A stretch of 14,811 bases of DNA from a virus. Its lineage: Duplodnaviria > Heunggongvirae > Uroviricota > Caudoviricetes. The stretch is from IMG/VR virus record IMGVR_UViG_2534681835_000032, positions 1 to 14,811 of that record, one strand, 5' to 3'. Shown in pieces: positions 6,746 through 14,350 of this stretch. A program made the translations under genes and the position numbers. Under the pieces are notes generated by a model, which was given only the letters and a program-made list of their open reading frames with translations, did not search any database and had not been told where the DNA came from. Positions within the stretch are counted from its first letter, which is position 1. Every line of letters starts with the position of its first letter.

Positions 6746-6944
6746 AAAGTGAATTTTGTGATGCGGTGAATGCGGCTAAGCGCACGCGGAACAGTTAAAA
6801 AGCTATTGTCCTTCGTAGCAGAGTTATGGGTGAAATATCCGGCGTTAATTGTTAACTGGTTAACGTCACCTGGAGGCACCAGGCACCGCATCAACAAAGT
6901 TCACTTCAGTGATGAAAGGTGAGAGAAAATGTTGAATGTAGCTA

Positions 6945-6973
6945 TTGAAAACCAGAACGGGTGGAATTATAGT
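6945..6973 (+). promoter_or_regulatory. Near-consensus sigma70 promoter TTGAAA-N17-TATAGT
   Basis: -35 TTGAAA (6945-6950), 17-bp spacer, -10 TATAGT (6968-6973); predicted transcription start near 6980. Confidence 0.45.
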
Positions 6974-6979
6974 GCACCT

Positions 6980-7057
6980 GCACCTCATAAAACGGGTGCC
7001 GGGATTTGCACCCCGATGATCACTAGAGCGCATAACCGCGCCAAAGCGGTTTTTTTA
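6980..7057 (+). ncRNA. Candidate ~77-nt small RNA / leader transcript upstream of the Rha gene
   Basis: Delimited by the promoter at 6945-6973 and the terminator at 7034-7057; internal hairpin GGGTGC(6994-6999)/GCACCC(7008-7013); carries copy 1 of the bipartite motif TTTGCAC...TCACTAGAG in the single-stranded stretch before the terminator. Confidence 0.35.
7034..7057 (+). terminator. Candidate intrinsic terminator (AACCGC-GCCAAA-GCGGTT + T-run)
   Basis: 6-bp GC-rich stem with 6-nt loop followed by a run of T residues; short stem, so moderate confidence. Confidence 0.4.
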
Positions 7058-7222
7058 TGCGTAAAGCGCAGCCACATTCAGATTATGGTGGGGCGTATGG
7101 GGCCGTTTTCGGGCGGGCCGGATTCTCTAGTGACCGGTAGTGCAAACCCTGTACGTCTCACCACCCATGAGATTTGCACCTCCGGTGGCGAGTTTACCAA
7201 CTTATCACTAGAGGCTGCCATC

Positions 7223-7777
7223 ATGGCTACTATCCCTACCCTTTCTCACCCTGACGTAACCATCGAAAATGGTCGTGCTGTCACTACGTCTGTTGCAGTT
7301 GCAGAGTTTTTCCGCAAGCTGCATAAAAACGTCATTCAAAAAATTGAAGCTCTGGAATGTTCCTCAGAATTCACTGAGCTTAATTTTAAGCCAAGTGAAT
7401 ACACCGACTCAACCGGGCGCAAACTCCCAATGTACCAAATCACCAAAAACGGCTTCGTTTTCCTGGTGATGGGCTTCACCGGCAAAAAAGCCGCTGCATT
7501 TAAAGAAGCCTACATCGCTGAGTTCGATCGCATGGAAGCAGAGCTACGCCAGAATAATACCACTCCCACAAACAAAATCATTCCGGGCGATGGGCGCACT
7601 CTGGTTGTTCGCTTCGACAAATTCGGCAACGTCGAATTCACTGAAACCGTTCCTGATGGCGCTCTCGTCTGTACCCTGGACACTTTCCGCCTTTATCTGG
7701 AGAAACAGGGCTGGACTCTTGTAAACCGAAGCGCAATTAAAAATATGACCGTCGAGCAGTTGCTGAGTATTAAATAG
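7223..7777 (+). CDS. Rha-family phage regulatory protein (Phage_pRha domain), 184 aa
   Basis: N-terminal region (LSHPDVTIENGRAVTTSVAVAEFFRKLHKNVIQKIEAL...SEFTELNF...MYQITKNGFVFLVMGFTGKKAAAFKEAYIAEFDRME) matches the Rha domain; SD GAGG 8 nt before ATG 7223. The track ORF extends in frame to 6929, but that extension is rich in rare codons (AGA, CTA, GGG) and contains promoter, terminator and repeat elements. Confidence 0.6.
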   Translation: MATIPTLSHPDVTIENGRAVTTSVAVAEFFRKLHKNVIQKIEALECSSEFTELNFKPSEYTDSTGRKLPMYQITKNGFVFLVMGFTGKKAAAFKEAYIAEFDRMEAELRQNNTTPTNKIIPGDGRTLVVRFDKFGNVEFTETVPDGALVCTLDTFRLYLEKQGWTLVNRSAIKNMTVEQLLSIK

Positions 7778-8045: not shown

Positions 8046-8215
8046 TGACTAAGAAAATAAAATGTGCTTACCACCTTTGCAAAAAAGACGTTGAAGAAAG
8101 CAAAGCTATTGAAAGAATGCTTCACTTCATGCACGGGACTTTATCAAAAGACGAACCGAGAAAATATTGCAGTGAAGCTTGTGCCGAAAAAGACCAGATG
8201 GCACACGAACTTTAA
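8039..8215 (+). CDS. ydaE: Small Cys-rich (zinc-binding-like) protein YdaE-like, 58 aa
   Basis: [61 protein letters not shown] with CxxxxC ... CxxxC; overlaps the kilR stop (ATGGTGATGA); SD AAGGCGGAG. Confidence 0.65.
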
Positions 8216-8288
8216 TTAATTGACTATTCGAAACTGAATTTATGCCAGCAATGGCAGGGATTCGCTCAACCTTAATTAAGGAGAAAAA

Positions 8289-8565
8289 ATGATTACCAGT
8301 TATGAAGCCACTGTTGTAACTACCGATGACATTGTTCACGAGGTTAATCTGGAAGGAAAGCGTATTGGCTACGTGATTAAAACAGAAAATAAAGAAACCC
8401 CCATTCACTGTGGTTGATATCGATGGTCCATCAGGCAACGTAAAAACACTTGATGAAGGTGTCAAAAAAATGTGCCTGGTGCATATCGGAAAGAATCTGC
8501 CCGCAGAAAAAAAAGCCGAATTTCTGGCAACTCTGATTGCAATGAAATTAAAAGGTGAAATCTGA
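8289..8565 (+). pseudogene. racC: racC interrupted by a +1 frameshift in a C5 homopolymer (8398-8402)
   Basis: ATG 8289 (SD AAGGAG) reads MITSYEATVVTTDDIVHEVNLEGKRIGYVIKTENKETP then hits TGA at 8415-8417 (42 aa). Removing one C restores ...ETPFTVVDIDGPSGNVKTLDEGVKKMCLVHIGKNLPAEKKAEFLATLIAMKLKGEI ending at 8565 (91 aa). Span length 277 = 3n+1. Confidence 0.6.
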
Positions 8566-8665
8566 AAGAAATAGCCTGCGTATGGCGCAGGCTATGAACA
8601 GTGTGTATCCGGCAAGATTATTCACTGAACAAACGAATTTTAATCTGAGTTGAGGTTAAAAAACA

Positions 8666-12271: not shown

Positions 12272-12466
12272 ATGAGATATGACGATGTTAAACCATGTCC
12301 GTTTTGTGGTTGTCCATCTGTTACGGTGAAAGCAATTTCAGGATATTACCGGGCAAAATGCAACGGATGCGAATCCCGAACTGGCTATGGTGGAAGTGAA
12401 AAAGAAGCACTCGAAAGATGGAATAAACGAACTACTGGAAATAATAATGGAGGTGTTCATGTATAA
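12272..12466 (+). CDS. ralR: RalR / Lar (restriction alleviation; type I toxin of the RalR-RalA pair), 64 aa
   Basis: MRYDDVKPCPFCGCPSVTVKAISGYYRAKCNGCESRTGYGGSEKEALERWNKRTTGNNNGGVHV, recognised as RalR; in-frame upstream ATGs at 12260 and 12233 are alternative starts; no clear SD. Confidence 0.75.
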   Translation: MRYDDVKPCPFCGCPSVTVKAISGYYRAKCNGCESRTGYGGSEKEALERWNKRTTGNNNGGVHV

Positions 12467-12647
12467 AATAACTGCCACTATTGAAAAAGAAGGTGGCACT
12501 CCTACTAACTGGACAAGATATTCAAAATCTAAATTAACGAAATCAGAATGCGAAAAAATGCTCTCAGGGAAAAAAGAAGCAGGCGTGTCCAGAGAGCAGA
12601 AAGTAAAGCTGATAAATTTTAATTGCGAGAAACTTCTGTCCTCGTGA
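12459..12647 (+). CDS. ydaC: Small protein YdaC-like, 62 aa
   Basis: MYKITATIEKEGGTPTNWTRYSKSKLTKSECEKMLSGKKEAGVSREQKVKLINFNCEKLLSS; SD GGAGG 6 nt upstream of ATG 12459; overlaps the ralR stop by 8 nt. Confidence 0.65.
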   Translation: MYKITATIEKEGGTPTNWTRYSKSKLTKSECEKMLSGKKEAGVSREQKVKLINFNCEKLLSS

Positions 12648-14077: not shown

Positions 14078-14225
14078 TTTTAACGTAAATGGATTGTTAA
14101 ATGTATTTTGGTTGTGATATAACCAAAAAAGACCGGAATACAGAAATTCGAGTAAATTTCGGGGAATTTCGGGGAGACGCTTGCAACTGATTGATTTTAA
14201 ATACAATTAAAAAAAGACCGAGTAC
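14078..14225. other. attL-like junction: phage P-prime arm with arm-type repeats, and putative core overlapping the 3-prime end of sdsR
   Basis: Region between the int stop and the first recognisable host sequence; contains tandem AATTTCGGGG repeats and two near-copies of AAAAAAGACCG(A/G)(A/G)TAC. Exact crossover point not determinable from one junction. Confidence 0.45.
14144..14174 (+). repeat. Tandem direct repeats AAATTCGAGT / AAATTTCGGGG / AATTTCGGGG (candidate arm-type Int-binding sites)
   Basis: Three adjacent 10-11 bp repeats (two perfect) 67-97 bp downstream of the int stop, in the position of lambda P-prime arm sites. Confidence 0.35.
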
Positions 14226-14311
14226 GATTCCTGTATTCGGTCCAGGGAAATGGCTCTTGGGAGAGAGCCGTGCGCTAAAAGTTGGCATTAATGCAGGCTT
14301 AGTTGCCTTGC
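14209..14311 (-). ncRNA. sdsR: SdsR (RyeB) RpoS-dependent small RNA, ~103 nt
   Basis: Minus-strand sequence GCAAGGCAACTAAGCCTGCATTAATGCCAACTTTTAGCGCACGGCTCTCTCCCAAGAGCCATTTCCCTGGACCGAATACAGGAATCGTACTCGGTCTTTTTT matches SdsR as recalled from memory; terminal hairpin plus U-run at the 3-prime end. Confidence 0.75.
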
Positions 14312-14350
14312 CCTTTAAGAATAGATGACGACGCCAGGTTTTCCAGTTTG
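14312..14350 (-). promoter_or_regulatory. sdsR promoter region with sigmaS-type -10 (TCTATTCT)
   Basis: Minus-strand TCTATTCT ends ~6 nt upstream of the SdsR 5-prime G; consistent with the known RpoS dependence of sdsR. Confidence 0.4.

Follow-up and report, generated by a model that had tools for sequence, protein, structure and literature searches.

A copy of the prophage small RNA IsrK as the predicted terminated leader of an isrK-C4-rha cassette in a Rac-like prophage of Escherichia coli

Results

RNA genes and rha in the early-left region

The sequence analysed here, referred to as the window, is a stretch of 14,811 nucleotides (nt) of a Caudoviricetes record (IMG/VR IMGVR_UViG_2534681835_000032), which occurs with 100% identity in the chromosome of E. 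coli O111:H8 strain 8E. The window belongs there to a Rac-like prophage with the gene order cI-like helix-turn-helix (HTH) regulator, ydaF, 'Rha family' coding sequence (CDS), kilR, ydaE, recE, recT, ralR, xis and int, adjoining yebY. Subject of this study is a short RNA gene located in the early-left region, between the cI-like HTH gene (5503-5967) and kilR/recE, for which an initial annotation had proposed an oop-like small RNA. As judged from its sequence, this 77-nt RNA is an unannotated copy of the known prophage small RNA IsrK and not a new RNA. By the same measure it does not stand alone as a small RNA, but forms the terminated leader of a cassette composed of isrK, C4 and rha.

The window was scanned against Rfam at the curated thresholds, which yielded two adjacent matches on the plus strand at this locus, isrK followed by C4. 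The isrK match (RF01394) covers positions 6980-7056 with 68.6 bits (gathering score 50) and extends over the whole model (1-77 of 77). A PisrK-like sigma-70 promoter (6945-6973, plus strand) precedes it, with TTGAAA as -35 hexamer (6945-6950), a 17-nt spacer and TATAGT as -10 hexamer (6968-6973), at the place given in the initial annotation. This promoter is the sole site in the window with 10 of 12 matches to the sigma-70 hexamers and shows the best fit to the consensus. The -10 box ends 7 nt upstream of 6980, the predicted transcription start (+1), and a start at this distance would give an RNA of 77-78 nt, in agreement with the promoter-terminator unit of about 77 nt described earlier. The predicted intrinsic terminator of IsrK (7034-7058, plus strand), likewise found as a GC-rich stem and T-run in the initial annotation, consists of a stem-loop at 7034-7051 (AACCGCGCCAAAGCGGTT) and seven consecutive T (U in the RNA).

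The IsrK-family RNA (6980-7057, plus strand) is predicted to comprise hairpin 1 (6980-6999), hairpin 2 (7000-7015), a single-stranded linker and the terminator. The folding energy of the RNA is -24.3 kcal/mol (z = -2.56), and both the minimum free energy and the centroid structure contain the hairpins 6980-6999 and 7000-7015, which are also favoured by the Rfam isrK consensus and by compensatory changes in relatives. The 5' hairpin formerly placed at 6994-7013 (GGGTGC/GCACCC) can be drawn, but is mis-assigned and competes with these two better-supported hairpins. The single-stranded, seed-like stretch GATGATCACTAGAG (7015-7028), on the other hand, was recovered and contains one of the specificity elements described below (b1).

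The C4 match (RF01695; 7081-7168, plus strand) lies 25 nt downstream of the isrK match and reaches 78.1 bits (gathering score 45) over the complete model (1-87 of 87). The C4-type antisense RNA predicted here has a long basal stem, a UUCG hairpin, a 12-nt loop with the element b' (CUCUAGUGA, 7125-7133) and a 3' junction with the element a' (GUGCAAA, 7140-7146). Exact complements of both are found twice on the same strand. In IsrK, a1 (UUUGCAC, 7005-7011) is located in the loop of hairpin 2 and b1 (UCACUAGAG, 7020-7028) in the single-stranded linker, and in the rha leader both are exactly repeated as a2 (UUUGCAC, 7173-7179) and b2 (UCACUAGAG, 7205-7213), the latter overlapping the Shine-Dalgarno (SD) sequence GAGG (7211-7214). 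This SD sequence and the start codon ATG 7223 are conserved in an alignment of 11 sequences. An AUG at +106 (7085) in the 5' stem of C4 is invariant (+107 in Gifsy-1, the type IsrK locus).

The gene following the RNA module, rha (7223-7777, plus strand), encodes a Rha-type antirepressor-like regulator of 184 amino acids (aa) when read from the conserved ATG 7223. RefSeq instead annotates a long open reading frame (ORF; 6929-7777, plus strand) as a 'Rha family phage regulatory protein' of 282 aa (WP_000935592.1), the first 98 codons of which cross the promoter, IsrK, the terminator, C4 and a2/b2; no RNA is annotated there. The Phage_pRha domain covers aa 119-203 of the long ORF, corresponding to aa 21-105 counted from ATG 7223. 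Matches to PHROG families of Rha-like regulators and anti-repressors were obtained, and the C-terminal 70 aa or so match phrog_2379, the family of Gifsy-1 AnrP.

The promoter and terminator as such carry little weight. The window shows no excess of promoter-like sites (13 found, 21.3 expected in the scan), and 22 terminator-like sites were found with 16.2 expected. In 300 mononucleotide shuffles of the window, promoters with at least 10 of 12 matches occurred 3.4 times per shuffle on average, compared to one in the window itself, and a promoter of this quality with a terminator 50-110 nt downstream was present in 8% of the shuffled windows. The pair alone, being only weakly beyond chance expectation, is weak evidence for an RNA gene, and it is homology on which the assignment turns.

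Conservation and co-variation in relatives

Relatives were collected by scanning viral contigs with a 19-mer from the 3' stem of C4, which together with earlier loci gave 97 unique modules. The order isrK, then C4 about 25 nt later, was found in all ten phage relatives fetched. A -10 box of the form TAnAnT is present at the aligned position in 92 of the 97 modules; the promoter spacer measures 17 nt in all 97 as aligned, with the -35 hexamer one column off register in about one third of the rows. A U-run of at least five residues is found in 96 of 97 and a hairpin of -5 kcal/mol or better directly 5' of it in 95 of 97. The predicted +1 (approximately 6977-6981) coincides with the point where the similarity of the DNA to phage relatives starts. 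The full-length isrK match and the conserved position point to a separate gene for a small RNA, equipped with a promoter and an intrinsic terminator of its own, as had been initially proposed.

Hairpin 1 of IsrK shows compensatory changes (AU/GC/CG and CG/GC/AU) with 96-100% canonical pairing in the 97 relatives, and the count in the 11-sequence alignment agrees. Column-based pair counts were made on the latter alignment, with the partners slid by 1-3 columns as controls. The IsrK helices together with a1:a' and b1:b' are canonically paired in 92.8% of the cases (35-44% in the slid controls), 17 pairs being changed on both sides, and the covariation score amounts to 0.472 (at most 0.126 in the controls). 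For a1:a', 97% of the pairings are canonical and both sides are changed in six of seven pairs; the corresponding values for b1:b' are 95% and seven of nine pairs.

In an alignment-free test, short-duplex energies were compared between cognate and non-cognate element sets, using 58 distinct sets for the specificity of a2/b2. The mean energies of cognate and non-cognate duplexes were -15.6 and -8.3 kcal/mol for a1:a', -12.5 and -6.1 kcal/mol for b1:b', -10.0 and -4.0 kcal/mol for a2:a', and -13.5 and -6.4 kcal/mol for b2:b'. Cognate duplexes are thus better by 6-7 kcal/mol at all four contacts.

The 97 modules contain 16 distinct a' and 37 distinct b' elements in 46 combinations, and a and b types reassort independently. 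In six relatives (L024, L039, L041, L046, L051 and L053) the promoter and backbone are near-identical to window positions 6932-7275 while the a/b sets differ, the sets being exchanged in concert at all three sites (IsrK, C4 and rha leader). Concerted swaps of this kind are the signature expected of determinants of immunity specificity. The joint change of the three sites shows that the 'seed' of IsrK fits both its own C4 and the rha leader. One further module, L095, carries an a1 type differing from its own a' and a2 and may be a recombinant.

Comparison with Gifsy-1, P1/P7 and P4

The Gifsy-1 prophage likewise carries isrK and, about 25 nt downstream on the same strand, C4, the latter at the position of 'orf45' and of the stable RNA STnc1160 as placed by Hershko-Shalev et al. 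2016 (PMC4825925). Common to both loci are a 77-nt RNA with its own promoter, two 5' hairpins, a single-stranded stretch and an intrinsic terminator, a1/b1 elements complementary to the downstream RNA, and an antirepressor-like gene with b2 over its SD sequence. The homologous promoter of Gifsy-1 drives transcription of isrK-orf45-anrP, giving rise to a 77-nt RNA and, from the fraction of transcripts that reads through, to a translationally silent mRNA (PMC4825925). Plasmid-expressed IsrK raised anrP translation 139-fold in trans, an activity lost in the IsrK mutants G28A and G31A, and compensatory mutations (G28A and G31A with C162U and C159U downstream) define a helix named b-I (PMC4825925). 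In our alignment G28 and G31 fall into the a1 loop and C159 and C162 into a', so that the published helix b-I corresponds to a1:a'. Chromosomal deletion of the isrK promoter abolished spontaneous phage production, and STnc1160 was reported to be processed from a precursor to a stable RNA (PMC4825925). In Salmonella lysogens, transcription of both IsrK and STnc1160 was high in every condition tested (PMC7067206).

The two loci share about 77% DNA identity over the module and differ in both specificity elements as well as in the downstream protein, which is Rha-type in the window and AnrP in Gifsy-1. The window cassette is located early-left, beside kilR/recE, whereas that of Gifsy-1 lies downstream of the Q-like antQ. 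Furthermore, the upstream open reading frame (uORF) borne by C4 is a separate ORF of 45 codons in Gifsy-1. No separate orf45-like uORF was found in the window, where the frame of AUG 7085 runs stop-free into rha, as it does in 56 of 95 relatives. A separate, coupled uORF is a feature of the Gifsy-1 locus and not of the isrK RNA family model.

The P1 record lists promoter P1c4, a1, b1, c4, a2, b2 and icd, the same order as in the window, and describes a2/b2 as the sites at which C4 represses translation of icd and ant. The distances are similar as well: the -10 box and a1 are 32 nt apart in P1 and 31 nt apart in the window, and b2 precedes the start codon by 11 nt in P1 (icd) and by 9 nt in the window. 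The P1 leader can adopt an IsrK-like fold including a terminator-like hairpin, but the isrK model scores below its cut-off there (35.1 bits), while c4-a1b1 reaches 51 bits. The location of b2 at the ribosome-binding site and the antirepressor-type nature of the controlled product resemble immI of P1/P7. In contrast to immI, the window contains neither an icd-like ORF nor ant1/ant2, the Rha-type gene following directly, and the element belongs to a lambdoid Rac-like prophage and not to a plasmid prophage of the P1 type. The resemblance to immI would be one of working and not of operon gene content.

In the immunity region of P4, in which seqA, the CI RNA (seqB) and seqC are distinguished, the isrK model matches the leader with 60.8 bits and the C4 model matches the CI RNA, downstream on the same strand, with 74.9 bits. 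SeqA has already been called a structural homologue of IsrK by Hershko-Shalev et al. (PMC4825925). The gap between the two RNAs is larger in P4 (about 108 nt), and the downstream genes differ. Moreover, the CI RNA, the immunity factor of P4, was reported to cause premature termination of transcription of the replication operon (PMC4825925) and not to block translation of an antirepressor.

On the strength of these sequence comparisons, IsrK, the a1/b1 leader of P1/P7 and P4 seqA are one element, and so are C4, STnc1160 and CI. In Rfam, the leader nucleotides of Gifsy-1, P1, P4 and two other phages (L012, L008, L009, L134 and L135) are covered in an overlapping manner by RF01394, which is assigned to no clan, and by c4-a1b1 (RF03163, clan CL00128), the latter above its threshold in Gifsy-1. 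Since the isrK model covers the same nucleotides as c4-a1b1, both families describe overlapping parts of one element, and they appear to be two models of it. To judge from the loci compared, the RNA cassette can evidently be placed before antirepressor-like genes of different kinds.

Neighbouring features

Several other structured elements were noticed in the window. A strong terminator-like hairpin (5987-6008, plus strand; nine pairs followed by a T-rich stretch) lies directly 3' of the cI-like HTH gene; transcripts of this gene may therefore stop before the region of ydaF, the DicF-like RNA and isrK. The DicF-like RNA (6686-6740, plus strand) matches the full model (1-52) with 42.8 bits, just below the gathering score of 48 (E = 4e-8); the isrK promoter follows about 240 nt further downstream on this strand. 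Between the two, an STnc100-like structured region (RF02076; 6752-6898, plus strand) was matched by part of the model (22-154) with 40.6 bits (gathering score 47). This region is overlapped by an ORF of 50 codons (6770-6922) that shares the frame of rha and has its TGA stop codon at 6920. Further Rfam matches above threshold are RalA, the antitoxin of ralR (12465-12643, minus strand), sok beside hokD (151-325, minus strand) and the SraC/RyeA-SdsR/RyeB pair (14205-14349, both strands). This pair is found just past the integrase gene and beside yebY, which places the prophage at the ryeA/ryeB locus. A tRNA scan of the window gave no match.

Discussion

The IsrK RNA of the window very likely belongs to a three-part RNA switch of the type seen in P1/P7 immI and P4 immunity, in which it forms the promoter-proximal leader that ends at a terminator. 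According to this model, the promoter at 6945-6973 would fire in the lysogen and most transcripts would end at the terminator (7034-7058), yielding IsrK of about 77 nt, while the read-through fraction would provide the C4 antisense RNA (7081-7168) and the rha message. C4 would expose b' in its loop and a' in its junction for pairing with a2 (7173-7179) and b2 (7205-7213) in the rha leader. Since b2 overlaps the SD sequence, Rha is proposed not to be translated when C4 pairs. IsrK holds exact copies of these target elements and would therefore compete for C4, both in cis, as part of the read-through RNA, and in trans. An excess of IsrK would titrate C4 or refold the leader, and the antirepressor-like Rha would be made; the efficiency of the IsrK terminator would set the balance between the block by C4 and the relief by IsrK. 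Transcription, processing, block and relief at the window locus, as well as the antirepressor activity of Rha, are inferred from the homologues. A trans-acting layout, as suggested in the initial annotation, is in line with the family, which acts in trans in Salmonella (PMC4825925) and is labelled an Hfq-binding RNA in Rfam; that IsrK binds Hfq and activates antirepressor translation in trans is known from Salmonella only (PMC4825925). We infer that IsrK serves as a decoy for C4, rather than acting solely by the uORF-refolding route proposed for Gifsy-1, where refolding around the orf45 ribosome-binding site is favoured by the authors (PMC4825925).

A number of observations weigh against this model. 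The c4-a1b1 family (RF03163) scores only 18.8 bits on the window leader, below its gathering score of 46.7, compared to 25.6-46.2 bits in phage relatives, 48.1 bits in Gifsy-1 and 51.0 bits in P1. Nested cofolding of IsrK with C4 and of C4 with the leader did not predict the a/b contacts, the gains of -4.3 and -0.2 kcal/mol, respectively, arising from unrelated pairs. Nested models cannot represent loop-loop contacts, and such a miss is therefore expected; short-duplex estimates, on which the energetics rest, and co-variation were used instead. In the column count, a2:a' and b2:b' were paired in 65.7%, with one slid register equally high. This count is unclean because the rha leader is misaligned by indels, and the alignment-free test was relied on for a2/b2. 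A BLASTP comparison of the window Rha with Gifsy-1 AnrP revealed no significant similarity (E = 0.14), which leaves the PHROG profile over the C-termini as the sole link between the two proteins, and the antirepressor activity of the window Rha is itself a prediction. In Gifsy-1, constitutive expression of STnc1160 together with IsrK led to stronger growth arrest (PMC4825925), which would not be predicted by a pure model of repression by C4 and titration by IsrK. RNA-seq, Northern or Hfq data were not found in the literature on the E. coli homologue; one study on enterohaemorrhagic E. coli merely lists isrK (two copies) and C4 among the Rfam annotations left out of its analysis. Finally, translation through the module may add a layer outside the model, the frame being open in the Rha-type clade.

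The short RNA might also be a by-product of attenuation, with a1/b1 acting only in cis and the released 77-nt RNA having no function of its own here. All structural features of the locus would suit a leader acting in cis just as well, a1/b1 carry only the label 'putative' target sites in the P1 record, and the trans effects in Gifsy-1 came from plasmid-expressed IsrK. We nevertheless regard this explanation as unlikely, in view of the 139-fold increase of anrP translation by IsrK in trans and its loss in G28A/G31A, the loss of spontaneous Gifsy-1 phage production upon deletion of the isrK promoter (both PMC4825925) and the abundance of the RNA in lysogens (PMC7067206). Furthermore, compensatory changes preserve hairpin 1 although it lies outside the C4 contacts; this suggests that the free RNA is under selection. 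Far less probable is an oop-like antisense RNA pairing with a convergent or overlapping mRNA of the opposite strand, as the name chosen in the initial annotation implies. In lambda, the cis-antisense RNA OOP runs convergently to cII and is complementary to the 3' end of that gene, and the 77-nt size class, the prophage regulatory region and the combination of a promoter with an intrinsic terminator are as in OOP. However, no gene is annotated on the minus strand, the neighbours are all co-directional with the RNA, the family assignment is isrK, and the complementary partners lie downstream on the same strand, C4 following after 25 nt. Two minus-strand ORFs (6866-7033 and 6985-7077), which have neither annotation nor support, were considered, and an antisense reading was rejected. 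That promoter-like hexamers and a hairpin with a T-run merely co-occur by chance, without function, would be compatible with the 8% of shuffles holding such a pair and with the lack of enrichment of promoter-like sites, but has a nearly negligible probability given the full-length Rfam match, the position conserved in 97 relatives, the co-variation and the Gifsy-1 experiments (PMC4825925). While the observations of the initial annotation were confirmed, its interpretation is only partly supported.

The initial annotation had itself raised the objection that the region might simply be the coding 5' end of a longer rha gene. RefSeq/PGAP does annotate 6929-7777 as one CDS (WP_000935592.1), an SD-like sequence (AAGGTGAGAG) precedes ATG 6929, and the Pfam family Phage_ASH (PF10554) matches aa 14-108 of the long ORF. 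At the nucleotide level this match (6968-7252) reaches from the -10 box through IsrK, the terminator, C4 and a2/b2 to the tenth codon of rha. In the Rha-type clade, defined by a downstream gene starting with M[A/T]T[I/L/T/V/F] and including the window, 54 of 55 unique sequences have no stop codon in the rha frame between the IsrK +1 and the rha ATG, and this openness persists through dozens of exchanged specificity elements. An earlier test for stop depletion in the hypervariable elements (34, 65 and 76 by frame) was discarded, as it was confounded by repeatedly counted conserved flanking triplets, and distinct stop sites within this one clade were counted instead: of 41 sites, one falls into frame 0, 23 into frame 1 and 17 into frame 2. 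Several relatives also have an in-frame ATG 213-360 nt upstream, either SD-bearing or coupled to the stop codon of the upstream gene. Still, a single 282-aa 'Ash-Rha' protein with incidental promoter, terminator and RNA matches is very unlikely. Two structured-RNA models match above threshold, the complementary co-variation of three sites would make no sense at the protein level, and a strong terminator with seven U residues is conserved inside the supposed domain. The entropy by codon position is 0.47, 0.51 and 0.49 in the module and 0.54, 0.23 and 0.72 in the first 17 rha codons, codon-like variation thus beginning at ATG 7223; without codon periodicity in the module, the region is not 'simply' coding. 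Moreover, the frame is open in none of 40 modules preceding other genes and closed in Gifsy-1 and P1, 29 of 95 modules have a length that cannot be divided by three, and the P4 ORF matching Phage_ASH is the old 'cI protein' ORF over a C4-type RNA. Since ATG 6929 lies upstream of the -35 box, transcripts from the isrK promoter cannot encode the long form.

Selection in the Rha-type clade thus seems to act on the openness of the frame and not on the amino acid sequence. As a tentative possibility, transcripts from upstream of the isrK promoter could be read by ribosomes across the IsrK terminator, C4 and the block formed by a2/b2 and the SD sequence, giving an extended Rha. Translation would start at ATG 6929 in the window and 213-360 nt further upstream in relatives, often coupled to the preceding gene; the elongating ribosomes would melt both RNA structures, and the N-terminally extended Rha would escape the control by C4. 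If true, this would amount to a translational override of an RNA immunity switch, with two RNA genes inside an ORF selected only for openness. In any case, the stop-free frame of the Rha clade is a testable oddity.

For the RNA switch itself, the consequences concern mainly annotation and interpretation. The finding as such changes little: the small-RNA gene is most probably real, but its family has been described and experimentally studied before. RefSeq runs a 282-aa CDS through two predicted RNA genes without annotating either of them; among 5,426 complete E. coli genomes, 973 contain similar DNA, as do 206 phage records. The same over-extension of a CDS was seen in ST64B sb41, Stx2a_1447 ('antirepressor'), Stx1_699 ('Ant'), Hafnia yong2 ('Ash family protein') and ASU11. 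PF10554 and PHROGs 995, 821, 6928 and 3960 match the conceptual translation of the isrK-C4 module. In P4 (L135), the old 'cI protein' ORF (8168-8584, minus strand) matches Phage_ASH, and P4 epsilon matches another family, PF25738; a satellite-detection study lists PF10554 as its epsilon profile (PMC8628076). Phage_ASH and several PHROG families appear to be conceptual translations of the RNA module, and 'Ash domain' annotations in studies on Stx phages and P4 satellites therefore probably mark an RNA switch and not a protein.

IsrK of Salmonella, a1/b1-c4 of P1/P7 and seqA-CI of P4 are separate entries in Rfam and in a 2025 review, yet they represent one type of cassette. This cassette type occurs in at least 46 specificity variants before different antirepressor-like genes, which would explain heteroimmunity among otherwise near-identical prophages, and the specificity variants would matter for the induction of Stx phages.

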